A stretch of 64,000 nucleotides of DNA, taken from the NCBI GenBank assembly GCA_049975485.1, contig JBNGDC010000004.1, positions 59,636 to 123,635 of the forward strand, in the 5' to 3' direction. The translations under genes were made by a program, and so were the position numbers. Of the stretch, positions 51,712 through 64,000 are shown piece by piece; positions within the stretch are counted from its first letter, which is position 1, and each line of letters starts with the position of its first letter. This DNA comes from Phycisphaerae bacterium. Its GTDB lineage: Bacteria > Planctomycetota > Phycisphaerae > SM23-33. The notes beneath the pieces are model-generated. The model had not been told where the DNA came from. It saw only the letters and a program-made list of their open reading frames with translations, and ran no database searches.

Positions 51712-52944
51712 CTACCGCGGCTGTAGCTTGCGGAATGTCTCCAGGGCTTCGGGGAAGGGGCCCAGGGCGCGCTGCAGGATGCCGAGCGAGTGTGCGATGG
51801 TCAGCCCGTAATTGGCTATGGGCACGCCGGCCTTTCGGCAGCGGACCATGCGCGACAGGACCTCGCGACGGTTCCACATGCACGCGCCGCAGTGCACGAC
51901 CAGCCGGTAGGGCGAGAGGTCCTCTGGGAAGTCGTGCCCCTGAGTGAAGTCGAACTCCAGCTCGCCGCCGACGCGCTGCCGCAGCCAGCGTGGGATCTTC
52001 ACGCGCCCGATGTCGTCGGCGATGGGGTGATGGGTGCAGGCCTCGGCTATCAGCACGCGGTCGCCGGCCTTCAGCCGATCCAGCGCCGTGACGCCGCGGA
52101 CGAACTCGTTCAGGTCGCCCTTGGCGCGGGCAAACAGAACGCTGAAGCCGGTCAACAGGACGTCCGGCGGCGTTTCGGCGGCCACCTTCGCGAACGCCTG
52201 GGAGTCCGTCACCACCAGCGCCGGCGGACGCTTCAGCCGGTCCAATGCGTCGCGAAGCTCGGTCTCCTTGGCCACCATGCAGTAGGCGTTGTGGTCCAGC
52301 GCGTCGCGGATGGACTGCACCTGCGGCAGTATGAGCCGGCCTTTGGGCGCCTCCAGGTCGATGGGCACGACCATCATGATCAGCTCGCCCGGGGGAACGA
52401 GGTCGCCGAGGATGGCCGGTGCGTTGATGAAGTCCTCCGGCGCCTGACGAATGAGCGCCTCGCGGAAGTCCAGCACGCCCTCGCCCGACGGCGCGACCGT
52501 ACGGACGACCGGCACATTGCGGGCGGCAAGCTCGTCCAGAACGTCGCCCGGCGGCTCGTAGAGGTCGAACTTGTTGAATACGACGATCGCGGGTATCTCG
52601 CGATGCTCCAGCTCCTCGAGCATGGTCTGCTCGAACTGCGCCCAGCCGCCCTCGCCGACGACGATGACGCCCACGTCGGTGCGGTCGAATATCTGCCGCG
52701 TGCGCTGGATGCGCAGCTCGCCGAGGTCGCCGACGTCGTCTATGCCGGCCGTGTCGATGAACAGCACAGGCCCGATCGGCAGCAGCTCCATCGGCTTTTC
52801 GACCGGGTCGGTGGTGGTCCCGGCCACGTCCGAAACAATGGCCACCGACTGGCGCGTGATGGCGTTGAGCAGCGAACTCTTGCCGACGTTCCGCCGCCCG
52901 AAGATGCCTATGTGCAGCCGAAAGCCCTTGGGTGTCTTTTCCAT
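51712..52944 (-). CDS. hydF: [FeFe] hydrogenase H-cluster maturation GTPase
   Basis: N-terminal GTPase ([13 protein letters not shown]). C-terminal FeS motif EACTHH...VVHCGAC (CxHx46HCxxC). Confidence 0.9.
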
Positions 52945-52980
52945 AGCAATCTGTCGGGCAGGTATGCCCGACCTGCATCC

Positions 52981-53028
52981 GGTTAACCGGCTAACCAGTT
53001 AACCAGTTAACCAATTAACCAATTAACC
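52981..53028. repeat. perfectly phased array of six octamers NNTTAACC (GGTTAACC GGCTAACC AGTTAACC AGTTAACC AATTAACC AATTAACC) in the hydG-hydF spacer
   Basis: Read directly. Begins 5 nt after the hydG stop and ends 37 nt before the hydF start codon. Confidence 0.6.
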
Positions 53029-53033
53029 GTTTG

Positions 53034-54458
53034 TCAGAAATAGAGGTCGCGGTCGTCGCTGGTGCGGATACGTCGCAGCCGTTCGGCAAGCTCATCCTTC
53101 ACCGAGCCGTCGGGCAGTTTCTGCAGCTCTTCGGCTATGCGTTTTTCGCCGACGGCGCGGGTCTGCGGCGAGGCGTAGTCGGTGAGGTACTCCTGCAGCG
53201 TGGTCAGGGCGTTGGGCGTGCAGAAGTTCTGAATGAACCCGGGAATCGCGAACTCCATAAAGTGCTCGCCGGTCCGCCCGAGCCGGTAGCACGCCGTGCA
53301 GAAACTCGGGATGTATCCGTCGGCCAGCAGCTCCTGCATCACCTCATCCAGCGTGCGCACGTCGCCGAGGGAGAACTGCTCGCGCTCCATCACCTGAGCG
53401 TCGCCGGCCTCGGTGTAGCCGCCGAGGTCGATCCGGCTGCCGGCATCTATCTGCGAGACGCCGAAGCCCATCACCTCGCGGCGGAGCTTCGCCGGCTCGC
53501 GGGCCGTGAGTATCAGACCGGTGTACGGAACCGACAGCCGCAGGATCGCCACCAGCCGCTTGAACTGCCAGTCGCTGACCTGCCACCTGCCGTCCAGTAC
53601 CGTCCCGGCCGCAGGCCTGAGCCGCGGGAAGCTGATGGTATGCGGACCGACGCCGTATCGGTCTCGAAAGTAGTTGGCGTGGGCGACCAGTCCTAGAACC
53701 TCGAACCGCCAGTCGTACAGTCCGAACAGCGCGCCTATGCCCACGTCGTCGCAGCCGGCCTCGAAGGCCCGGCTAAGCCCGTCCAGGCGGTAGAGGTAGT
53801 TGCCCTTGCGCGTATCGGCCGGGTGTATGCGGGCGTAGGTCTCGTGGTGATACGTCTCCTGGAATATCTGGTAGGTGCCGATCCCAGCGTCCTTGACGCG
53901 CTCGTAGCCCTCGTGGTCGAGCGGCGCGGCGTTGATATTCACTCGACGTATCTCACCGTGCCCGGAGCGGATGTTGTACACATGCCGCACGCATCGGGCG
54001 ATGCAGTCGGCGTCGTAGGCGGGGTGTTCGCCCCACACCAGTATCAGCCGTTTGTGCCCAGCGTCCTCCAGAGCGGTTACCTGTTCGCGGATGTCGTCTT
54101 CACTGAGCGTGCGACGCTGAACTTCCCTGTTGGAGCGACGAAAGGCGCAGTATGCGCAGTCGTTGACGCACTCGTTGCCGATGTAAAGCGGCGCGAACAG
54201 CACGATGCGATTGCCGTACACGCTGCGCTTCAACTCGCGGGCGGCCTCGAATATCTCGCCCACCAGGTCCTCATCCTCGGCCGCCAGCAGAACGGCCGTT
54301 TCGGCGACGTTCAGCGGCTCCTTGTCCATCGCCTTGGCGATTATCCCGCGCACGGCGGAGGGGTCCTGCGGTGTGTTGGCGATGAGTTTGTTCAGATGGT
54401 CGTCGTCTATGAAATCGACGGCGCCTTCACTGAGTGTCATGGTTGTCAATGGGCACAT
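53034..54458 (-). CDS. hydG: [FeFe] hydrogenase H-cluster radical SAM maturase (tyrosine lyase)
   Basis: Radical SAM motif CVNDCAYC. C-terminal CTAC-x22-C (CX2CX22C auxiliary cluster) is characteristic of HydG. GGAGG ribosome-binding site precedes the ATG at 54458. The ORF track opens much further upstream (55130). Confidence 0.9.
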   Translation of the reverse strand: MCPLTTMTLSEGAVDFIDDDHLNKLIANTPQDPSAVRGIIAKAMDKEPLNVAETAVLLAAEDEDLVGEIFEAARELKRSVYGNRIVLFAPLYIGNECVNDCAYCAFRRSNREVQRRTLSEDDIREQVTALEDAGHKRLILVWGEHPAYDADCIARCVRHVYNIRSGHGEIRRVNINAAPLDHEGYERVKDAGIGTYQIFQETYHHETYARIHPADTRKGNYLYRLDGLSRAFEAGCDDVGIGALFGLYDWRFEVLGLVAHANYFRDRYGVGPHTISFPRLRPAAGTVLDGRWQVSDWQFKRLVAILRLSVPYTGLILTAREPAKLRREVMGFGVSQIDAGSRIDLGGYTEAGDAQVMEREQFSLGDVRTLDEVMQELLADGYIPSFCTACYRLGRTGEHFMEFAIPGFIQNFCTPNALTTLQEYLTDYASPQTRAVGEKRIAEELQKLPDGSVKDELAERLRRIRTSDDRDLYF

Positions 54459-54484
54459 GATTACCTCCTTCCGGAGGGGGCAGC

Positions 54485-55531
54485 TCAAACTTTCGCGTGA
54501 CGGTCCAGGTAGCTGGGCGACGCGCCCGGTCCGACGCCGACGGTTCGCCCGATGGACGCGATTCTGTTTCGGATGCAGGCGCTGCAGTCGCCGGCCGACT
54601 CGGCTATGCACGCCTTGGCCGGGTATATCTCGTACATGGGTCGGTAGCGCGGCGGCGTGACGTTGGGCATAACCACGTTCGCGCCGCATTGTAGGGCCGA
54701 TTCCCGTCCGTCCACGGTGTTGATCGTCGCCAGGGCCGTGGTCGCCGGTATGTTGGACGACGGCCGCACGATGCGGGTCAGCGCGATCATCTTTCTGGTC
54801 ATCAGTTCGGTGTTGGGCACCTGGTCCGCACCCGCCGGCGCCGCTTTGGCCAGTGGCGTCGCCGGGTGCGGTATGAACGGACCCAGCCCGATCATGTCCA
54901 GCTCCAGCTCGTCGAACAACTCGACGTCGGCGGCGAGGTCGTCGTAAGTTTGACCCGGTATGCCGACCATGCAGCCGCTGCCGACCTCGTAGTCCAGCCG
55001 TCGCAGCTCCTCGAGCACGGCCAGTCGCTCTCCCAGCGATCGGCCGTCGCCGGCATGCAGGCGGGCATACAGCCGTTCGTTGGACGTCTCGAAACGCAGC
55101 AGGTAACGGTCGGCTCCGGCGCGGCGCCACAGGGCCAGCTCGTCACTGGACCGCTCGCCCAGACTCAGCGTGACGGCCAGGTTGGTTTGGCTCTTGATGC
55201 TCTCTGTCAGGCGGGCGATGCGATCGCCGGTCAGTTGCGGGTCTTCGCCGGCCTGGATGACGACCGTTCCATAACCCAGCCGCTGCGCCTCGCGTGCGGC
55301 GGCGACTACCTCCTCGTTGCTCATGCGGTACCGCCGCAGCCCCCGGCGGGTCGCACTGATGCCGCAGTACGAGCACCGCCGCGTGCAGTAGCTGGATATC
55401 TCGATAAGCCCGCGAAGATGCACCTCCTCGCCGACGTTCTCGCGGCGGACGGCGTCGGCCTCGCGCAGAAGCTTCTCCAGCCGCCGCGGGTCGGTCTCGA
55501 GGAGTCGGCTTTTTATCCACTCATGATCCAT
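54485..55531 (-). CDS. hydE: [FeFe] hydrogenase H-cluster radical SAM maturase
   Basis: CTRRCSYC radical SAM motif. BioB-like fold, 348 aa. Flanked by hydG and hydF. Confidence 0.9.
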   Translation of the reverse strand: MDHEWIKSRLLETDPRRLEKLLREADAVRRENVGEEVHLRGLIEISSYCTRRCSYCGISATRRGLRRYRMSNEEVVAAAREAQRLGYGTVVIQAGEDPQLTGDRIARLTESIKSQTNLAVTLSLGERSSDELALWRRAGADRYLLRFETSNERLYARLHAGDGRSLGERLAVLEELRRLDYEVGSGCMVGIPGQTYDDLAADVELFDELELDMIGLGPFIPHPATPLAKAAPAGADQVPNTELMTRKMIALTRIVRPSSNIPATTALATINTVDGRESALQCGANVVMPNVTPPRYRPMYEIYPAKACIAESAGDCSACIRNRIASIGRTVGVGPGASPSYLDRHAKV

Positions 55532-56696
55532 CTTCGCCGGCTTCCTGCTGTTCGGTCTGCTGATCGCCGACGGCGTCGGCGTCTCGGAGCGTCACGGTAA
55601 AGGTCGAACCGACGTCCGGCTCGCTGCTGACGTTCACTTCGCCGCCGTAGAGCGACACCAGCTTGCGGACGATCGACAGCCCAAGCCCGCTGCCGAGGAT
55701 GTTGCGGGTCTTTTCATTCTTTATGCGGGTGAATTCCTGGAACAACCGCTCGGTGTCTTCCGGGGACATTCCTATGCCCGTGTCGGCGACGCTGATGGTG
55801 ACGGTGTCGTCCTCCCGGCTGACGGTGACGTCCACGCGTCCCTCGGGCTTGTTGTACTTCACGGCGTTGGAGATGAGGTTGTTCAGGATTATCTCCAGCT
55901 CGCCACGGTCGCATTTCAGCGGGGCCGGGCCGTCGGCATGCAGCTGGAGCGTCAGGTTCTTCTCGTCGTCGGCCGCCCGGGCGCCGTCCAGCGCCTCGCG
56001 GGCGACCTCGACGACGTCCTGCTCGGCGATATCGCGCTGCTTCTGTCCCGACTCGATCCGCGTCAGGTCAAGAAGGTCCAGAATGAGCTTCCTCATGCCT
56101 TCCAGGCGTGTAAGCGACCTGTCCAGCATGTGTTTGTAGGCCTCCGGATCGTCGCCCGCGGAGCCATCGCGAATGATCCGCAGATAGCCCTCGACGGCCG
56201 AGAGGGGCGACTTCAGCTCGTGCGCCAGCACCGAGATGAACTGAAAGCGGACCTGCCGCTTTTCCTCGGCCAGTTTCTCGGCCTGACGGCGGATGAGCAG
56301 ATGCCTGGCCGCCTTTCTCACCACGCCTCGCAGCTCGTCGGGCGTGAACGGCTTGGCCAGGAAGTCGTACGCGCCGCGCTTGGTGGCGGTTACGGCGGTG
56401 TCCAGCGAGGCGTAAGCGGTGATGACGATGGTCAGCATCCTGCCTTCGTCGTCGGGGAGCTTCTGCAGCACGTCCAGCCCGCTCATGCCGGGCAGTTTGT
56501 GGTCCAGCAGAAGGATGTCGGGCTGGTTCTCGCCGATGATCTCCAGCGCCTGCTCACCGGTCTCGGCCTGGGCTACATCGAAGCCGTACTCGCCCTCGAT
56601 TTCGTCGAAGCGCACGGTGAAGTCCCGCAGCGCCCGCTGAACGCCCAGACGCATGCCGGCCTCGTCGTCCACAACCAGTACGTTCAGTTTCTCCAT
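55521..56696 (-). CDS. cytoplasmic response-regulator/histidine-kinase hybrid (REC-HisKA-HATPase, no output domain)
   Basis: N-terminal receiver (VLVVDDEAGMRLG...ILLLDHKLPGMSG...FLAKPF). H-box LAHELKSPLSAVEG. G2 GSGLGLSIVRKLV. No TM segment. Confidence 0.85.
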   Translation of the reverse strand: MEKLNVLVVDDEAGMRLGVQRALRDFTVRFDEIEGEYGFDVAQAETGEQALEIIGENQPDILLLDHKLPGMSGLDVLQKLPDDEGRMLTIVITAYASLDTAVTATKRGAYDFLAKPFTPDELRGVVRKAARHLLIRRQAEKLAEEKRQVRFQFISVLAHELKSPLSAVEGYLRIIRDGSAGDDPEAYKHMLDRSLTRLEGMRKLILDLLDLTRIESGQKQRDIAEQDVVEVAREALDGARAADDEKNLTLQLHADGPAPLKCDRGELEIILNNLISNAVKYNKPEGRVDVTVSREDDTVTISVADTGIGMSPEDTERLFQEFTRIKNEKTRNILGSGLGLSIVRKLVSLYGGEVNVSSEPDVGSTFTVTLRDADAVGDQQTEQQEAGEDGS

Positions 56697-56703
56697 CTTC
56701 GCC

Positions 56704-57105
56704 TCACTTCCCGAGCAAACGCTCGATTTCCGCGCGAAGCTGCTCGAACCGCACCGGCTTGGTCAGCATCACGTCCGCCTTCACCCAGGAACGTTCCTCC
56801 TCGGTCGCGGCGTCGAACTCCAGACCCGTCTCAGACGCCATCGCGGTGACCACTATCACCGGCAGCTCCGGCCGGTGCTTCTTGAGGCGGTAGCACAGTA
56901 CGAACCCGTCGTCCATGTGCTCCATCATGACGTCCACCACCGCCAGGTCCGGCCTGGATGATTCGGCGGCCTGCATCGCCTCATCCGCCGACTGGGCGGC
57001 GAGAACGTCGTACCCGGCGGCCTGCAACTGGAGCTGCTGCTGGGTCAGGAAGTCCGGGTCGTCGTCAACGACGAGGATCGTCGGTTTGTCTTTCTGTTCG
57101 CTCAT
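56704..57105 (-). CDS. single-domain response regulator receiver
   Basis: ILVVDDDPDF...LAVVDVMMEHMDDGF...LTKP. Contains an ~20-aa insert also present in its paralog. Confidence 0.85.
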   Translation of the reverse strand: MSEQKDKPTILVVDDDPDFLTQQQLQLQAAGYDVLAAQSADEAMQAAESSRPDLAVVDVMMEHMDDGFVLCYRLKKHRPELPVIVVTAMASETGLEFDAATEEERSWVKADVMLTKPVRFEQLRAEIERLLGK

Positions 57106-57485
57106 TTGCCTTCCTTGAGCAGTTCGTCAACCTTTTTGCCCAGGGCCTTCGGCTCGAAGGGCTTCTCCAGGACCTCCACCACGGGCAGCCAGGTCTCGTC
57201 CGGCTCAAACTTGAACGGTACCCCCGTCGCCTCCCGCACGCCGGTCAGCAGCAGAATCGGAAGGTCCGGGTGTTTCTCGTGGATCTGCCGGGCGACTTCG
57301 AACCCGGCCGTCTGCGTCTCCATCATCACGTCCAGCACGATCACGTCCGGCACGGATTCCTCCATGCGCTTAAGCGCCTCGGCGGCACTGTAAGCGGCCG
57401 TCACCTCGTGTCCGTGGCTTCGCAGGACCACCGAGTTGATCTCGATGAGGTCAACGTCGTCGTCAACCAGAAGTACGTTAGCCAT
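57102..57485 (-). CDS. single-domain response regulator receiver (paralog of 56704 gene)
   Basis: VLLVDDDVDL...VIVLDVMMETQTAGF...LEKPF. Confidence 0.85.
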   Translation of the reverse strand: MANVLLVDDDVDLIEINSVVLRSHGHEVTAAYSAAEALKRMEESVPDVIVLDVMMETQTAGFEVARQIHEKHPDLPILLLTGVREATGVPFKFEPDETWLPVVEVLEKPFEPKALGKKVDELLKEGK

Positions 57486-57517: not shown

Positions 57518-59524
57518 TCATTCCTGCTTGCCCCGGCGGGGCAGTGTTATCGTGAAGGTTGTTCCGGTCGGACCTTGCTGGAGGTCCGTGTTCGACTCCA
57601 CGCTGATGTCGCCCTGGTGCATCTTCACCACGCCGTAGGTCACGGCCAACCCAAGCCCGGTGCCTCGGCCCATCTGTTTGGTGGTGAAGAACGGGTCGAA
57701 TATCTTCCTGAGGTTGTCCTGCGGTATGCCGACGCCGGTGTCGCTGACGGTGAATCGGACGTTTTCCGCGTCGCCGCTGGTGCGGACGGTAAGCGTCCCT
57801 TTCTCGCCCATGGCATCGACGGCATTGGTCATCAGGTTGGTGAGAACTTGTATCATCTGGTCCTTGTCCAGTTCCGCCTGGGCGTCCTGCAGCTCGTTTT
57901 CCACAACAAGCTCGATGCCCTCGGGCAGCTTCACCGACTTCAGCGCCTCATTGACCAGAGCGCCCACGTCGGTCATTTCCGGCACAACCTTGTTCTGCCT
58001 GGCGAAGTGCAGCAGACCCGAGACGATCCTTTTGCACCGGTCCGCCTGGTTGGTAATCATAGCCAGGTCATCTTTCAGCTTCGGGTCACCGGTGTACTCG
58101 TCCAGCAGCAGGTGCGAGTACATTAATACTACGCCCAGCGGATTGTTGACCTCGTGAGCAATGCCCGCCGCGAGCTGTCCCATGCTGGCGAGCTTCTCGG
58201 ACTGCATGAGCTGCTCCTGCGTGTCCGCCAGTTCATCGACGGCCTTGCGGAGCTGGTCGATCGTGTTCGGCAGGCACATTTCGCTCTCGGCCAGTCCCTT
58301 GTATATCGCGACGGCGTGCTCGCGGCAGGTGTCGTAGCCGCAGGCGCCGCAGTTCAGCTCGTCCTCGCTGCTGTGTTTGCCCATCCGGGCCATTATTGCG
58401 GCGATTTCATCTTCCGACGGCACCGCTATGCGCTGGTCCTGCGGCGTGTAGCCGCGGTGCAGGTCGATACCTTCTACCCTTTGCAGCCATTTCTCGTATT
58501 CGCGGTCGGAGGCCTGGGCGAGCCGTTCGCGCACGTACCTGCTGACGCGGCTGCGACGGCTGAACAGCGGGGCCTCCGTGGTCATGCCTGCGCCCATTAT
58601 GCAGCCGTTGCAGCAGAGGACCTCCAGCAAGCGGGCGTCCAGGTCGCCGTTGCCGAACTCGCGGATGGCCTCGACGAAATTCGTCCGCCCGTCGGTGGCC
58701 ACGACCTGACCGTCGATGAGGTCCTCGTCGATCTTCGCCGCCTGCAAAAGTCCGCGGCTTATCGGAAAAAGCGCGCCCGGGCCTGCGTGCGGCGGGTCGA
58801 AGTCGCTCTCGCCCGCGTCGTCGAGACCCACGCCCGCCTCCCGCAGCATGTTCCTGAGCTCCGCGAACGTTATGGCCGCGTTGATCTCGTCGGGCACATT
58901 CCGGCTGGCGGCCTCGCCTTTCTTGGCGATGCACGGGCCGATGAACACCACCTTAAGGTCCTCGCCATGCAGCTCCCGCAGCACCCTCGCCGTGGCGACC
59001 ATCGGCGAGACGATGGGAGCCAACTGGTCCACCAGGTCGGGATAGTAGCGCTCCACATAGGCGACTATCGCCGGGCAACTGGTGGCGATGTAGCGCCCCT
59101 GGGGGTCGTCGCTGAGCAACTGTCGGTATTGCCTTGCGACCAGGTCGGCGCCGAAGCCGACCTCGCAGACGTAATCGAAGCCCATTGCCCGTACGGCAGC
59201 GACGACATTGTGCCAGTCGCAGTCGGCGAACTCCGCCGGAAAGCTCGGAGCCAGACAGGCCGCCACCTTATCGTCGCTTTTCAGCAGTCGGCGCACGTCC
59301 GAGGTGCTGTCCAGCACTTCCTTGGCCCGCTGACTGCACACCCGCACGCAGTTGCCGCAGCCGATGCAGCGCTCGGGTATGACCTGCGCCTGGCCGTCGG
59401 AGATGCGGATGGCCTTGGCGGGGCACTCGCGCACACAGGTGTAGCACACGCGGCAGTGCTCGCCGATGGTCCTGACAAGTGTTATGTTTTCCGCACCTTC
59501 CACGATACAGGCCTCCTGGAGCAA
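57518..59524 (-). CDS. sensory-type [FeFe]-hydrogenase H-domain protein fused to histidine kinase transmitter (HydS-like sensor kinase)
   Basis: N-terminal part: two CxxCxxCxxxCP ferredoxin motifs; TSCP (L1-like); [11 protein letters not shown] (L2 MPCxxKxxE-like); [13 protein letters not shown] (L3); then CGACGYDTC-x16-C (Cx2Cx4Cx16C). C-terminal part: H-box [15 protein letters not shown]; N-box [12 protein letters not shown]; G1 DTGVGI; G2 [10 protein letters not shown]. Confidence 0.85.
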
Positions 59525-59525
59525 C

Positions 59526-61247
59526 CTAGAGCAGCACTTCGCGCGGCGCGTAGCTGGTGTGCAGAAGCTCGTGACTCTTCGGCCCCAGCGGGCTGCCGAG
59601 GAACTCCTCGTAGAGCCGCTTGACGGCGGGATTGTCGTGCGATGTCCGCAGTCGCTCGTGGCGGTCTATCTTGTACAGTGCCTTCATGCGCGCCTTGACG
59701 GCATCGCGGTCGGCGCCGTAGGGCTGCCCGCCGCCGGCGATGCACCCGCCGGGGCAGGTCATCACCTCGATAAAGTGCAGGTCGTCCCTGCCGGCGCGAA
59801 CCTCGTCCAGCACCTTCCGTGCCGCGCCAAGACCGCTGGCGACGGCCACGCCCAGCTTCAGCCCGTCTATGGTGAGCGTGGTCTGCTTGAGACGCTTGTC
59901 TCCGCGGACCGGACGCAAGTCGAGATTGTCCATGTTCCGTCCGGTGATGAGCCGATGGGCCGTGCGGACCGCCGCCTCCATTACGCCGCCGCTGGCACCG
60001 AAGATCTTGCCGGCGCCGCTTCGCTGCTCGAAGGGGGTATCCGCGCTGTCCGGCTCGAGCGTGTCCAGCTCCAGCCCGCGCAGGCGTATCATCCTCGCCA
60101 GCTCCCGGGTGGTGAGCACCGCGTCGATATCCCACATGCCGTCGCGGGCCATCTCAGGCCGACGCGCCTCGAACTTCTTCGCGGTGCAGGGCATGACGGC
60201 CACCGAGTAAATCTTCCGCGGGTCGATGCCCTCGCGATCGGCGAAGAACGTCTTTATCACCGCCCCGAGCATCTGCTGCGGGCTCTTGCAGGTGCTGAGG
60301 TTTTCCACGAACTCCGGGTGGAATTGCTCGACGAACTTGATCCAGCCCGGTGAGCAGCTTGTCATCATCGGCAGTCGTCCACCGTTCTGGATGCGGTGCA
60401 CCAGTTCGCTGGCCTCCTCCATGATGGTCAGGTCGGCTGAGAAGCTGGTCTCGAAGACGCGGTCGAAGCCCAGCCGTCGCATGGCCGTGGTCATGGTGCC
60501 GCAGATGTCCTTGCCGGGCTTGAGGCCGAACTCTTCCGCCAGGGTTACCGAGACCGCCGGGGCGTGCTGGACCACCACCAGCCGGTCGGGGTCGTTCAGC
60601 GCCTCGGCGATCTCCTTCATGTGGCTCTGTTCCCGCAGAGCGCCGGTGGGGCAGGCCGTGACGCATTGTCCGCAGTTGACGCAGCTCGAGACGTTCAGAC
60701 CCTCGTCGAACGCCGTGCCCACGGTCGCCCTGCTGCCGCGCCCGATGAAGTCGATGGCGGAGACGCCCTGAACCTCCTCGCATATTCTTACGCATCGGCC
60801 GCAGAGGATGCACTTGGCCGGGTCGCGGACGATCGCCGGGCTGGACGTGTCCAGCTTGCGCTGGGGGTTTTCGCCGCCGTAACGCCGTTCACGCACGCCG
60901 AGTACTTCGGCGAGTCTCTGAAGTTCGCACGTTCCGTTGCGTACGCAATAGAGGCAGTCGTCGGGATGCCCGGCCAGCAGCAGCTCCACGACGGTCTTGC
61001 GGGCGCGGAGTACGCGAGGGGAGTGCGTGAGCACCTTCATGCCCTCGCGCACCTGGTGCGCGCAGCTCGGGACGAGCTTGCCTTCGTCGGGAAGCTCCAC
61101 CACGCACATGCGGCAGGCGCCGCTGGGCGGCAGGCCCGGCACGTGGCAGAGCGTAGGCACGTCCACACCCGCCCGCTTCAGGGCGTCCAGAAGCATCTCG
61201 CCCTCGCGGGCCTCGACCGTCCTGTTATTGACGTCTATCCGAACCAC
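59526..61247 (-). CDS. hydA: [FeFe] hydrogenase catalytic subunit (CpI-like domain architecture: 2Fe-2S + FeS clusters + H-domain)
   Basis: 573 aa. N-terminal plant-type 2Fe-2S and FeS domains. H-domain motifs MTSCSPGW (L1 variant), AVMPCTAKKFE (L2) and EVMTCPGGCIAGGGQP (L3). Aligns block-by-block with Clostridium pasteurianum CpI as I recall it. Confidence 0.9.
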   Translation of the reverse strand: MVRIDVNNRTVEAREGEMLLDALKRAGVDVPTLCHVPGLPPSGACRMCVVELPDEGKLVPSCAHQVREGMKVLTHSPRVLRARKTVVELLLAGHPDDCLYCVRNGTCELQRLAEVLGVRERRYGGENPQRKLDTSSPAIVRDPAKCILCGRCVRICEEVQGVSAIDFIGRGSRATVGTAFDEGLNVSSCVNCGQCVTACPTGALREQSHMKEIAEALNDPDRLVVVQHAPAVSVTLAEEFGLKPGKDICGTMTTAMRRLGFDRVFETSFSADLTIMEEASELVHRIQNGGRLPMMTSCSPGWIKFVEQFHPEFVENLSTCKSPQQMLGAVIKTFFADREGIDPRKIYSVAVMPCTAKKFEARRPEMARDGMWDIDAVLTTRELARMIRLRGLELDTLEPDSADTPFEQRSGAGKIFGASGGVMEAAVRTAHRLITGRNMDNLDLRPVRGDKRLKQTTLTIDGLKLGVAVASGLGAARKVLDEVRAGRDDLHFIEVMTCPGGCIAGGGQPYGADRDAVKARMKALYKIDRHERLRTSHDNPAVKRLYEEFLGSPLGPKSHELLHTSYAPREVLL

Positions 61248-61259
61248 GGTTCACCTCGT

Positions 61260-63209
61260 CTATTCCACTACCACGGCGTCAAAGCGGCATGCGTCCAGGC
61301 ACGAACCGCAGCCGATGCACTTGTCAGGCACGATGTAGTGCGGACTCTTGGGCGCCCCCATGATGGCGCCGGTGGGGCACTTCTTGGCGCACAGTGTGCA
61401 GCCGACGCACTTGTCCTCGTCGATGCTGTATCGCAGCAGCTGCGCGCACGCCCCGGCCGGGCAGCGACGCTCGAAGACGTGCGCCTCGTACTCGTCGCGG
61501 AACCACCGCAGCGTGCTCAGCACGGGGTTCGGAGCGGTCTGTCCCAGCCCGCATAAGCTGGTTTCGCGGATGACCTCGGCCAGGCGGTTCAGGTAAACCA
61601 CGCCCTTGAAACGCTCCAGCGCGTCGAAGTCCTTCTCGCTGCCCCGGCTGCGGGTGATGCTCTCGAGTATCTCCAGCATTCTCCGCGTGCCTTCGCGGCA
61701 GGGGATGCACTTGCCGCAGCTTTCGCGCTGGATGAACTCCATGAAGAACTTCGCCAGGTCCACCATGCAGGTGGTCTCGTCCATCACCACCAGTCCGCCG
61801 GAGCCCATCATCGCGCCGACGGTTTTCAGCGACTCGTAGTCGATGGGTATGTCCAGGTGCTGCTGGGGTATGCACCCGCCGGATGGACCGCCTATCTGGA
61901 CGGCCTTGAAGCTCTTGCCGTCCGGCACGCCTCCGCCGATGTCGAAGATGATCTCCCGCAGCGGCGTTCCCATCGCCACTTCGATGAGTCCGGTCCGCTC
62001 GACCCGCCCGGAAAGGGCGAATACCTTGGTGCCCTTGCTGTTTTCTGTTCCGACGGCCGCGAACCGCTCCGGGCCGCCGTCGAGTATGCCAGGCAGGTTC
62101 GCGAGGGTCTCGACGTTGTTGATGACGGTGGGCTTGTCGAACAGGCCCTTGACCGCCGGGAAAGGCGGCCGGGGACGGGGCATGCCGCGCCGACCCTCGA
62201 TGCTGTGTATCAGCGCGGTTTCCTCGCCGCAGACGAAGGCCCCGGCGCCCTGCTTGATGCGGATGGTCAGCGAGAATCCGCTGTCCATGATGTTCCGTCC
62301 GAGCAGGCCGTTCCGCTCGGCCTGTTCGATCGCCTCGCGCAGGCGCCGGATCGCCAGCGGGTACTCCGCGCGGATGTACACGTACGCCTTGGTCGCGCCG
62401 ATGGCGTACGCGGCGATGGCCATCCCCTCGATGAGCCGGTGGGGATCGCCTTCGATGACGGCTCGGTCCATGAATGCGCCCGGGTCGCCCTCGTCGGCAT
62501 TGCAGACCAGGTATTTCTGGTCGGCCGGTGTGTCGAGGGCGAACATCCACTTCTTGCCGGTGGGGAAGCCGCCGCCGCCCCGTCCGCGAAGCCCGCTGTC
62601 CAGCACCTGCCTGCAGACGTCGCGAGGCGGGACCTCCCGCAGCACTCGCGCCAGCGCCCGGTAGCCGCCCCAGGCGAGGTACTCCTCGATTCGTGTGGGG
62701 TTTATGCGGCCGCAGTTGGCCAGCACCCAGCGCGTCTGGCGGGCGAAGAACGGGTGTTCGTCCAAAAACGGGACGCCGTCGTACGGCGTCAGGTGCTCGC
62801 AGCGATGCTGGCCGAGTACGTGCTCCGATGGCGTTTGCCCGGCGAGCATATCGCCCAGCAGTGCATCAACCATATCGGGTGTAACGGCCTCGAATGCCAC
62901 TCGGCAGCGGTCGGGCAGTTGCACCTCCATAATCGGCTCGGCCGCACAGAGACCGATGCAACCGACCTCGACGACGTCGGCCTCGACATCGCTGTTGTCC
63001 AGGTATTCACTGACGGCGCGGAGGGTCTTTCCGGCGCCGGCGCCCAGGCCGCACGTGCCCGTGCCTACGAATACGACCGGTCTGTCGAGCTTCTCCCGCC
63101 GCAGCGCCGAGGCCAGCTCTGTGAACTCGCCCACGTCCATGCCGTGGGGAGTCAGCAGGTCGGCGTCGCTGTCGCGCTTAGTTTTCGCCGGCTTCGTTGC
63201 GGTAGGCAT
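61260..63209 (-). CDS. hydB: NuoF-like flavoprotein subunit of multimeric [FeFe] hydrogenase (NAD(P)H/FMN/4Fe-4S, C-terminal 2x[4Fe-4S], N-terminal 2Fe-2S)
   Basis: GGGFPTGKKW (FMN/NADH site). CGKCIPCREG (N3 cluster). C-terminal CVGCTLCAKKCP and CIGCGSCLDAC ferredoxin motifs. Confidence 0.9.
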   Translation of the reverse strand: MPTATKPAKTKRDSDADLLTPHGMDVGEFTELASALRREKLDRPVVFVGTGTCGLGAGAGKTLRAVSEYLDNSDVEADVVEVGCIGLCAAEPIMEVQLPDRCRVAFEAVTPDMVDALLGDMLAGQTPSEHVLGQHRCEHLTPYDGVPFLDEHPFFARQTRWVLANCGRINPTRIEEYLAWGGYRALARVLREVPPRDVCRQVLDSGLRGRGGGGFPTGKKWMFALDTPADQKYLVCNADEGDPGAFMDRAVIEGDPHRLIEGMAIAAYAIGATKAYVYIRAEYPLAIRRLREAIEQAERNGLLGRNIMDSGFSLTIRIKQGAGAFVCGEETALIHSIEGRRGMPRPRPPFPAVKGLFDKPTVINNVETLANLPGILDGGPERFAAVGTENSKGTKVFALSGRVERTGLIEVAMGTPLREIIFDIGGGVPDGKSFKAVQIGGPSGGCIPQQHLDIPIDYESLKTVGAMMGSGGLVVMDETTCMVDLAKFFMEFIQRESCGKCIPCREGTRRMLEILESITRSRGSEKDFDALERFKGVVYLNRLAEVIRETSLCGLGQTAPNPVLSTLRWFRDEYEAHVFERRCPAGACAQLLRYSIDEDKCVGCTLCAKKCPTGAIMGAPKSPHYIVPDKCIGCGSCLDACRFDAVVVE

Positions 63210-63651
63210 CTATTACGTCCTTTACCGAATCCGGTGTCAGCTTCGCGTGGAATTCACCGTTCACGGACATCACCGGCGCCAATCCACAGGCGCCGATACA
63301 TGCGACTACTTCCAGACTGAACTGCCCGTCGGGGGTGGTCTGCCCCGGCTCGAGCTTCAACTCCCGCTTGACCGCCTCCAGTACGGCCGATGCGCCCTTG
63401 ACGTGGCAGGCGGTGCCCCGGCAGAGCTGAATGTGGTAGCGACCCAGCGGCTGGAACCGGAACTGGTTGTAGAAGGTCGCCACCCCATAGATCTTGCTCG
63501 CGGGCAGGTCCAGGTGGCGTCCCACACTGGTAACGGCCTCCCGCGAGAGGAACCCGCAGGCGTCCTGGATTTCCTGGAGTATGGGAATCAGGTCGTCCCG
63601 CGAGCCGCCCTGGTGGCGCGCGAGTATTTCCTCCACCGCGTTATCAGGCAT
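63178..63651 (-). CDS. hydC: NuoE-like thioredoxin-fold [2Fe-2S] subunit of multimeric [FeFe] hydrogenase
   Basis: CRGTACHVKGA ... CIGACGLAP are the NuoE 2Fe-2S Cys motifs. Overlaps hydB by 32 nt. Confidence 0.85.
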   Translation of the reverse strand: MPDNAVEEILARHQGGSRDDLIPILQEIQDACGFLSREAVTSVGRHLDLPASKIYGVATFYNQFRFQPLGRYHIQLCRGTACHVKGASAVLEAVKRELKLEPGQTTPDGQFSLEVVACIGACGLAPVMSVNGEFHAKLTPDSVKDVIDAYRNEAGEN

Positions 63652-64000
63652 GTGTGCTCAATCCTTCCTTTCCCTGACTGCGCTGTCTGGCGAAAAACGC
63701 CGCCTTCTCCAGCGAGCTGGTCAGGTCCACGTTTTCCACATACACGCCCCCCGGCACATGCAGCCGGACCGGCGCGAAGTTCATGATTCCGCTTACGCCG
63801 GCGGCTACGAGCGCCTCGGCCACCTGCTGGGCGGCGGACGCAGGCACGGCGATGATCGCGGTATGGATTCCCCGCTGTGTTATCTCCTCGTGCAGGTCGG
63901 AAACCGGCTTGCAGGGGCAGCCGTGTATCAGCCGTTCGGTAACCGCCGGGTCCTCGTCGAAGGCGACGGTTATGTCGAGCTTGGGTCTCCTGCCGGCGAA
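63644..64000 (-). CDS. rex: redox-sensing repressor Rex, C-terminal part (gene starts beyond window end)
   Basis: Open frame to the window edge. ...IAVPASAAQQVAEALVAAGVSGIMNFAPVRLHVPGGVYVENVDLTSSLEKAAFF matches the Rex C-terminal Rossmann/swap-helix region (Rex ...GILNFAPV...V.NVDL..EL). Overlaps the hydC start by 8 nt. Confidence 0.7.
   Translation of the reverse strand, partial: FAGRRPKLDITVAFDEDPAVTERLIHGCPCKPVSDLHEEITQRGIHTAIIAVPASAAQQVAEALVAAGVSGIMNFAPVRLHVPGGVYVENVDLTSSLEKAAFFARQRSQGKEGLSTHA

Follow-up and report, generated by a model that had tools for sequence, protein, structure and literature searches.

A HydS-type [FeFe]-hydrogenase module fused to a histidine kinase in a Phycisphaerae genome: a candidate H2 sensor kinase

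Introduction

Can a hydrogenase active site and the histidine kinase that reads it be combined in one polypeptide as a sensor of H2? The question is raised by a gene, here termed hydS-HK, within 64,000 nt of DNA from a Phycisphaerae bacterium (assembly GCA_049975485.1, contig JBNGDC010000004.1, positions 59,636-123,635 of the forward strand), the whole of which is referred to as the window. Its product joins a sensory-type [FeFe]-hydrogenase module directly to a histidine-kinase transmitter, an arrangement for which an earlier note, made from the letters of the DNA, had proposed that H2 binding at the H-cluster could control autophosphorylation. We judge it rather probable that HydS-HK is a kinase-fused form of the HydS-type (HydDB group C) putative sensory hydrogenases, working as an H2 sensor kinase by the mechanism set out in the Discussion.

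The two biochemically characterised putative sensory [FeFe] hydrogenases are TmHydS (Thermotoga maritima, group C, M2f) and TamHydS (Thermoanaerobacter mathranii, group D, M2e). H2 sensing by group C and group D enzymes is still called 'putative' in the literature, and work of 2026 on TamHydS undermines the C-terminal cluster as the carrier of the signal. A covalently attached kinase provides a simple read-out (autophosphorylation with and without H2) that is absent in HydS proteins with only a PAS domain or with no output, which makes the kinase-fused branch the best practical choice for testing whether an H-cluster can sense H2. The Phycisphaerae gene is a good intact representative of this branch, with cognate receivers and maturases encoded in the same operon.

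Results

Domain architecture of HydS-HK

Profile searches of the 668-aa open reading frame (ORF) returned Fer4, Fe_hyd_lg_C, PF04060, HisKA and HATPase_c domains in this order (Table 1; Pfam match ranges are numbered on the 668-aa ORF, and motif residues on the 661-aa protein described below). At the N-terminus, Fer4-type dicluster matches at residues 21-66 cover two [4Fe-4S] motifs, whose cysteines are invariant or nearly invariant in two alignments, one of 40 close and one of 31 distant homologues. The hydrogenase domain (H-domain) that follows was also recovered by structure comparison, as the top Foldseek matches in the PDB were all [FeFe] hydrogenases, aligned over 406-468 columns (8a6t_A, E 4.6e-21; CpI 4xdc_A, E 7.4e-19). 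The AlphaFold monomer model has a mean predicted local distance difference test score (pLDDT) of 79.6, and a score above 90 over most of the H-domain. HydS-type structures were absent among the PDB entries searched by sequence and Foldseek.

Residues were equated with those of CpI by aligning HydS-HK to the HydA of the window and that HydA to CpI, which checks the CpI numbering. All four H-cluster ligands are present (C143, C191, C298 and C301), and the equivalents of K358 and E361 (K194 and E197) are kept too; the ligand cysteines and both of these equivalents, together with the kinase motifs, are invariant or nearly so in both alignments. What has been replaced is the group A proton pathway, with Ser142 for C299, Gln for both E279 and E282, Asp for R286 and Ala for S319, as well as M353 (Gly189) and M497 (Leu296). 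The spacing of the two cysteines in L3 is one residue shorter than in group A. Among 120 homologues, L1 reads ATSCP in 57, ATTCP in 40 and STACP in 5. NCBIfam models of group A score the protein at 96-103 bits against cut-offs of 406-765, which leaves it outside group A.

Beyond the H-domain lies a four-cysteine motif, Cx2Cx4Cx16C, all four cysteines of which (C385, C388, C393 and C410) are invariant in both alignments. A C-terminal motif of this kind has been described for M2e and M2f enzymes, and the extra [4Fe-4S] site is typical of the HydS type (PMC8163306). The marks of HydS-type enzymes are found together here: the N-terminal pair of [4Fe-4S] motifs and the C-terminal motif, the loss of the group A proton residues, and the adjacency of hydABC and regulatory genes. 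Group C is, in addition, still defined by a PAS domain in reviews and biochemical papers (including PMC13104023). No Pfam PAS match at E <= 0.01 was obtained in HydS-HK, and the possibility of an unrecognised PAS domain between C-terminal cluster and kinase was rejected on this result and for want of room, there being just 40 predicted-helical residues from C410 to H450. The lack of a PAS domain makes the protein, judged by its domain content, a HydS relative with a different output, outside the strict M2f definition. With the ligands present and the maturases encoded alongside, its N-terminal module is a putative H-cluster-binding module.

The C-terminal half is, on its motifs, a class I (HisKA) sensor kinase with H, N, G1, F and G2 boxes. 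Within the H-box, AHEVNNPL, H450 is nearly invariant and N453, N454 and P455 are invariant in the 31-homologue alignment; the other conserved catalytic residues are N556/N560, D588xGxG592 (G1, DTGVG), F602/F605 and G614xG616xG618 (G2, GRGTGLG). The best PDB sequence match of the transmitter is ZraS (9jfj_A, E 4.2e-36), with whose kinase core Foldseek also pairs the tail of the protein.

Between the two halves runs a helical linker with a heptad pattern. From the last cluster cysteine, C410, it is 31 residues to the beginning of the HisKA match and 40 to the phospho-accepting H450. Of 120 homologues, 108 have a Cys-to-His spacing of 47 residues, 11 one of 40 and a single protein one of 33, so that the spacing changes by whole heptads only. 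The window protein has the rarer 40-residue spacer. Helices are predicted at residues 411-425 and 437-469, and the low pLDDT of the monomer model at 424-458 is as expected of a coiled coil modelled as a monomer. Steps of whole heptads are expected if helical register matters for signalling, and would fit a continuous signalling helix forming a parallel coiled coil. We regard the heptad-quantised linker as the strongest new piece of evidence that the sensor and kinase halves are functionally coupled.

All the sequence features that the earlier note had read from the letters are there: an ORF of 668 aa with two ferredoxin-type motifs, an H-domain with recognisable L2 and L3 motifs (Fe_hyd_lg_C, E 2e-46), an exact Cx2Cx4Cx16C motif, and a HydS-type module in which a transmitter takes the place of PAS, the last upheld by Pfam, the alignments and Foldseek. 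The domain boundaries for which it had proposed profile searches were recovered in the order given above. Three of its details have to be amended, one of them the start of the gene, which is treated with the operon below. It had noted that L1 reads TSCP, so that one of two adjacent cysteines is missing; one cysteine is indeed absent, but a ligand has not been lost, because the alignment to HydA and CpI places Ser at the proton-relay position C299 and retains the ligating Cys300-Pro301. TSCP is thus the loss of the proton-relay cysteine expected in HydS-type enzymes and not damage to a ligand. It had also placed the transmitter about 20 residues after the four-Cys motif; HisKA and HATPase_c are complete as claimed, but the distances are the longer ones reported here.

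Distribution of the fusion

A word-indexed protein search of NCBI, ENA, JGI and Logan assemblies, with proteins clustered at 90% identity, found at least 120 protein clusters at 62-87% identity that have the same Pfam architecture, mostly from Planctomycetota/Phycisphaerae. The JGI annotation of relatives reads 'signal transduction histidine kinase / iron only hydrogenase large subunit-like protein'. In a tblastn scan of one genome per GTDB species, full-length matches of 36-63% identity were obtained at 35 loci. Several of these loci are on contigs of megabase scale and one is on an assembled chromosome, and they come from Planctomycetota, Desulfobacterota, Verrucomicrobiota, Bacteroidota, Ignavibacteria/Melioribacteraceae, Elusimicrobiota, Spirochaetota, Myxococcota and Marinimicrobia, among other taxa. 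Given this recurrence across clusters and loci, the hydS-kinase fusion is real, old and widespread. The earlier note had offered the fusion as a candidate novelty and proposed a database search for the same architecture. The search succeeded, in at least 120 clusters and 35 genomes, and the novelty has to be given up, as the fusion is already in HydDB and in the Elusimicrobia and Hydrogenedentota studies discussed below. The architecture is catalogued and widespread among anaerobic bacteria, and the Phycisphaerae copy is a further member that will not surprise a specialist.

The genes around the fusion are conserved as well. By ORF and phmmer annotation, the cassette hydC-hydB-hydA-hydS/HK-REC-REC/HK, where REC denotes a receiver domain, is found in approximately 30 of the 35 loci and in at least nine phyla, often with rex before it and hydEGF after it. 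An orthologous REC gene follows hydS-HK in approximately 28 of the 35, and the REC-HK hybrid partner is present in most. At locus L001, on a 2.4-Mb contig, the order is rex-hydCBA-hydS/HK-REC-REC/HK-hydE-hydG-(lyase)-hydF. The lyase gene between hydG and hydF (L001 16071..17480(+); Lyase_1/FumaraseC_C, aspartase/fumarase-like) is absent from the window operon, and a sigma-54 activator gene located about 3 kb upstream of the rex-hydC operon of L001 is no part of that operon in the window either. In some loci (e.g. L007, L016, L033), hydS-HK and its receivers occur without adjacent hydABC. Candidate DNA-binding regulators near the cassette were rejected, as they proved to be receiver-only proteins or PAS/GAF kinases.

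Two groups of loci have further hyd genes. In those of Ignavibacteria/Melioribacteraceae type (L021, L022, L024, L025, L026, L034), the cassette is followed by a further REC, a second hydCBA set with a shorter HydB of about 400 aa, and a membrane PilS-like kinase. Given the second hydCBA set, one sensor relay may sit between two different hydrogenases in these loci. In loci from Bacteroidota and Planctomycetota (L010, L031, L035, L038, L019, L030), there is an extra HydS-type gene without a kinase, placed either upstream of hydC or at another point of the locus, in agreement with the 'two bfuT genes' noted for Bacteroidota (PMC11406978).

Outputs of the sensor module

The sensor module alone (residues 8-430) was used as a query against 1.84 billion cluster representatives, giving 5579 relatives at E <= 1e-3 and 1061 at E <= 1e-30, and the tails of the best 150 were classified. 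Among these 150, a PAS domain only, the classical M2f type, is the output in 57 and a directly fused kinase in 39. The remaining outputs comprise a sigma-54 AAA+ activator with helix-turn-helix (HTH; 11), PAS with a sigma-54 activator (4), GGDEF (4), PAS-kinase (4), an MCP signalling domain (3), and PAS-kinase-REC, kinase-REC, GAF-kinase and HisKA_3 (1-2 each). Representatives of the other fusions, including GGDEF diguanylate cyclases and GAF-GAF-kinases, are P0151, P0165, P0156, P0192, P0147, P0168, P0150 and P0167. The fusion to a sigma-54 enhancer-binding ATPase with HTH is a candidate one-component H2-responsive activator. In a rough neighbour-joining tree of sensor modules, which carries no support values, the window protein groups within the main direct-kinase cluster, and the PAS-only proteins form a separate one.

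Being swapped among so many signalling outputs, the HydS module appears to behave as a generic sensory input domain, which supports the sensing hypothesis for the family as a whole. The C1-C3 scheme of HydDB names only kinase, chemotaxis and phosphatase links (PMC5037454), and the literature search returned no relevant paper on the sigma-54 and GGDEF fusions of the sensor module. These fusions, the heptad-quantised linker and the conserved REC and REC-HK partners go beyond the descriptions in the literature found.

The hyd operon of the window

The hydS-HK gene is read from the reverse strand, within a run of genes in the order rex-hydC-hydB-hydA-hydS/HK-REC-REC-REC/HK-hydE-hydG-hydF. Gaps between these genes are -11 to +32 nt, with the exception of approximately 90 nt ahead of hydF, and the run from rex to hydF is therefore a single operon. 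The uninterrupted ORF (57518..59524) reaches TTG 59524, only 1 nt past the hydA stop codon. Inspection of the upstream DNA found AGGAGG 8 nt upstream of GTG 59503, and the 661-aa product from this codon exactly matches an NCBI protein of a Phycisphaerae metagenome-assembled genome (MAG; P0001, on a 124-kb contig). On these two grounds GTG 59503 is most likely the true start, which places it 22 nt from the hydA stop.

At the head of the operon, the stop of the rex-like gene overlaps the hydC start, by which the hyd operon is probably under NADH/NAD+ control besides the HydS relay. The gene is cut by the window end; a complete Rex (Put_DNA-bind_N and CoA_binding) is found at the equivalent place in L001 and in many further loci. 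Downstream of hydS-HK, both single-domain receivers have their acidic pocket, Asp, Thr and Lys intact. Tandem single-domain receiver genes (56704..57485) are a feature of the window and of L017, a MAG labelled Bdellovibrionales, while most related loci have one; the second gene is probably a local duplication.

Table 1. Features of HydS-HK and of its operon, in window coordinates
Feature	Coordinates	Strand	Evidence and remarks
rex-like gene (redox-sensing repressor), 3' part	63644..64000	-	Pfam CoA_binding E 2.2e-13; truncated by window end
hydC, NuoE-like [2Fe-2S] subunit	63178..63651	-	Pfam 2Fe-2S_thioredx E 1.8e-52
hydB, NuoF-like flavoprotein subunit	61260..63209	-	Pfam Complex1_51K and NADH_4Fe-4S
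hydA, catalytic subunit of HydABC-type NADH-linked [FeFe] hydrogenase	59526..61247	-	NCBIfam NF040763 818.6 bits vs cut-off 765 (NADH-dependent group A6 model); Pfam
hydS-HK, sensory-type [FeFe]-hydrogenase module and histidine kinase	57518..59503	-	661 aa from GTG 59503
Two ferredoxin-type [4Fe-4S] motifs, accessory F-clusters	59336..59455	-	C17/C20/C23/C27 and C46/C49/C52/C56; Pfam Fer4 family
H-domain, Fe_hyd_lg_C (PF02906)	58589..59269	-	Pfam residues 86-312, E 2e-46, 159.1 bits vs cut-off 22.1
L1 motif ATSCPAI	59066..59086	-	C143-P144 = CpI C300-P301 ([4Fe-4S]H ligand); S142 = position of proton-relay C299
L2 motif GPCIAKKGE	58913..58939	-	C191 = C355, K194 = K358, E197 = E361; G189 replaces M353
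L3 motif	58586..58624	-	C298 = C499, C301 = C503 (bridging Cys); L296 replaces M497
C-terminal four-Cys motif Cx2Cx4Cx16C (CGACGYDTC...C)	58274..58351	-	C385, C388, C393, C410; PF04060 'Putative Fe-S cluster' residues 390-419, E 4.5e-9
Helical linker L411-A449, last cluster ligand into H-box	58157..58273	-	Heptad pattern L411/I415/L418/V422/L425/L432
HisKA (DHp) with phospho-accepting H450	57995..58183	-	H450 codon 58154..58156; Pfam residues 448-510, E 5e-14, 52.5 bits
HATPase_c with N, G1 and G2 boxes	57533..57868	-	Pfam residues 553-664, E 4e-28, 98.5 bits
REC1, single-domain response regulator	57102..57485	-	Pfam Response_reg E 9.4e-19; acidic pocket DDD, D52, T81, K108 in sequence
REC2, single-domain response regulator	56704..57105	-	Pfam Response_reg E 2e-20; start overlaps REC1 stop by 4 nt
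REC-HisKA-HATPase_c hybrid, second-tier kinase	55521..56696	-	Pfam
Maturases hydE, hydG, hydF	51712..55531	-	hydE 54485..55531, hydG 53034..54458, hydF 51712..52944; Pfam Radical_SAM, BATS, HydF_dimer, HydF_tetramer

A separate observation concerns the neighbouring HydA, in which residues 296-302 (60342..60362(-)) read TSCSPGW instead of TSCCPGW. In the alignment to CpI, the proton-relay Cys299 is kept and the [4Fe-4S]H ligand Cys300 is replaced by Ser; L2 (MPCTAKKFE) and L3 (EVMTCPGGC) of this HydA are normal. Of the 31 HydA genes whose L1 could be read in loci of kinase-fused HydS, most of them directly upstream of it, 19 have the TSCSP variant, as do 5 of the 12 that accompany other HydS types. 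A paper of 2013 noted the variant in Melainabacteria but took it no further (PMC3787301).

Discussion

There is a possible mechanism by which HydS-HK could act as an H2 sensor kinase. First, HydE, HydG and HydF from the same operon would build an H-cluster in the N-terminal module. In the absence of a fast proton-transfer pathway this module would turn over slowly, and the redox and ligand state of its H-cluster would report the ambient H2 pressure, by analogy with TmHydS and TamHydS, which turn over slowly, stabilise reduced states of the H-cluster and tolerate CO, all of it consistent with sensing (PMC8163306, PMC13104023, PMC10407848). The H2-dependent change, as a conformational change or as electron transfer, would pass via the C-terminal [4Fe-4S] domain, with its last Cys ligand at the start of a continuous coiled-coil helix into the DHp domain, and movement of the helix would switch the transmitter, at His450, from its kinase to its phosphatase state or back. 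Phosphoryl groups would then reach the single-domain receivers encoded next to it as well as the REC-HK hybrid, which would act as a second-tier kinase to an output not encoded in the cassette. The physiological role could be feedback on H2 metabolism (HydABC expression or activity, fermentative redox balance), alongside the NADH/NAD+-sensing Rex. We infer that control of autophosphorylation by H2 at the H-cluster is the best available explanation of this protein, because the H-cluster ligands are intact, the group A proton pathway is lost, hydEFG share the operon, the linker is heptad-quantised and the module is found on many outputs. The linker, the conserved partners of the relay and the modularity of the sensor lend a reasonable interpretation somewhat more support.

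Several points weigh against this explanation. In TamHydS, the C-terminal cluster is unreduced under 1 atm H2 and hardly affects catalysis, which its authors regard as a challenge to earlier ideas of signal transduction (PMC13104023). Given this behaviour, the redox version of signal transfer is doubtful, at least for group D, and by analogy the signal is more likely to take a conformational route than to depend on a change in the redox state of this cluster. The study of Hydrogenedentota hardly found H-cluster motifs in group C1 proteins bearing HATPase_c (PMC11406978); some kinase-linked relatives need not bind an H-cluster, and HydS-HK here keeps all ligands. The AlphaFold prediction, made for the monomer, is of low confidence precisely in the linker (424-458) through which the signal would pass. 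A DNA-binding response regulator was found neither in the cassette nor just upstream of hydC in the related loci, and the literature search found no experiment on any kinase-fused member.

The best-surviving alternative is a sensor of the cellular redox state (ferredoxin or electron pool), in which the F-clusters would exchange electrons with ferredoxin or HydABC and the kinase would read the reduction of the cluster chain, with the H-cluster serving only to equilibrate that chain with H+/H2. The conserved pair of accessory [4Fe-4S] clusters, which in TamHydS is the primary electron-transfer route (PMC13104023), would suit this role, as would the position of the gene directly after hydA in an operon shared with the redox sensor Rex. 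A redox sensor, however, has no need for four H-cluster cysteines, K358 and E361 that are invariant across phyla, or for an intact sensor module in fusions to at least seven outputs, and we consider it unlikely. This alternative also overlaps with the main reading, since a chain equilibrated by an H-cluster still reports H2.

A second alternative, with a still lower probability, is that HydS-HK serves chiefly in catalysis or electron transfer, as a fourth subunit of HydABC ('BfuT'), the kinase domain having another purpose or being a secondary addition. The protein has been named the T subunit of BfuABC (PMC11406978), a study of an Antarctic lake raises the possibility that a group C1 enzyme has a metabolic role, and the synteny with hydCBA is strict, with the tight spacing of 22 nt from hydA described above. 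Against such a role, the proton-transfer pathway for fast turnover is absent, the kinase has invariant catalytic motifs, and its gene is always followed by two or three receiver genes that look cognate; at loci such as L007, moreover, hydS-HK and its receivers do without an adjacent hydABC.

It is very improbable that the N-terminal half is a degenerate Nar1/IOP-like domain with [4Fe-4S] only and no [2Fe] subcluster, in which case the protein would be an Fe-S/O2 or NO sensor kinase. The missing second cysteine of L1, the shorter cysteine spacing of L3 and the near-absence of H-cluster motifs in group C1 proteins of Hydrogenedentota (PMC11406978) are compatible with it. We rejected it on the conservation of the four ligands and of the K358/E361 equivalents; the residue pattern is, besides, that of TmHydS and TamHydS, which bind a functional H-cluster (PMC8163306, PMC10407848), and HydE, HydG and HydF are encoded in the same operon, although HydA needs them too. 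An assembly or frame artefact joining a HydS gene to a separate kinase gene is refuted by the uninterrupted ORF, the identical 661-aa protein on the 124-kb NCBI contig, the same architecture in at least 120 independent clusters (90% identity) and full-length tblastn matches in 35 genomes, and its probability is negligible.

The observations can also be combined into a wider proposal, which we put forward tentatively and of which, as a whole, we are rather doubtful. The HydS module would be a portable H2-input domain driving at least seven output classes (direct HisKA, HisKA_3, PAS, sigma-54 with HTH, MCP, GGDEF and GAF-kinase) and signalling via a register-sensitive coiled coil that departs from the last cluster ligand. 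Its kinase branch would feed a conserved relay of HydS-HK, single REC and REC-HK with no DNA-binding output, which has not been analysed as a unit before.

HydS-HK can be compared with four kinds of known system. The first are NtrB/AtoS/ZraS-type class I kinases, which the transmitter resembles in its matches to AtoS (NF008468, 204.8 bits, residues 430-666) and ZraS and in an H-box of the form AHE(V/I)xNPL. The NCBIfam kinase matches are, however, all far under the equivalog cut-offs, the input is a hydrogenase module whereas theirs is a periplasmic or PAS sensor, and the neighbouring receivers are single-domain or REC-HK proteins and not NtrC-type activators.

Analogous in logic are HoxBC-HoxJ and HupUV-HupT, where the histidine kinase regulating hydrogenase genes is itself governed by a slow hydrogenase of the sensor type. 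The metal site and family are unrelated, there is no sequence homology outside the kinase core, and sensor and kinase are separate polypeptides in a complex, whereas here they form one chain. These systems belong to [NiFe] group 2b of HydDB (PMC5037454, Table 1).

Closest among characterised enzymes are TmHydS and TamHydS, which share with HydS-HK the two N-terminal [4Fe-4S] motifs, the H-domain, the C-terminal Cx2Cx4Cx16C, the absence of Cys299 and the rest of the group A proton pathway, and a HydABC-type enzyme encoded next door. M353 and M497 are likewise replaced in all three, by Gly/Leu in HydS-HK, Gly/Ser in TmHydS and Ser/Leu in TamHydS, so that HydS-HK has the Gly of the former and the Leu of the latter (PMC8163306, PMC10407848). 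The C299 position is Ser in HydS-HK (Ser or Thr in most close homologues) as against Ala in both of the others. TmHydS ends in a PAS domain, whereas HydS-HK has a complete HisKA/HATPase_c transmitter fused directly; TamHydS has neither PAS nor kinase, and a separate HATPase-like gene flanks it.

The architecture itself is matched by published kinase fusions. HydDB (2016) divides group C into C1 'histidine kinase-linked', C2 'chemotactic' and C3 'phosphatase-linked', all of them putative sensors (PMC5037454). The Elusimicrobia study (2019/2020) describes a kinase fusion by HydABC, with Rex nearby, that is related to the enzymes of Ignavibacterium album and Caldithrix abyssi and was called group C (10.1101/765248). 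The Hydrogenedentota study (2024) describes BfuT, assigned to HydDB group C3, with a histidine-kinase domain in its predicted structure and the same domain in a HydDB reference entry; bfuT lies downstream of bfuA, in a cluster organised as in Caldithrix abyssi (PMC11406978). Like HydS-HK, the fusions of these two studies have two [4Fe-4S] motifs, an H-domain, a C-terminal cluster and a kinase with no PAS, and are encoded directly downstream of hydA/bfuA with Rex nearby. Full-length homologues from Elusimicrobiota, Ignavibacteria and Bacteroidota are 42-60% identical to HydS-HK and are found in the same cassette. The equivalence rests on architecture, synteny and homology rather than on a shared tree. 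What sets the window copy apart from the published fusions is its origin, a MAG of Phycisphaerae (Planctomycetota), and its two single-domain receivers in place of the usual one.

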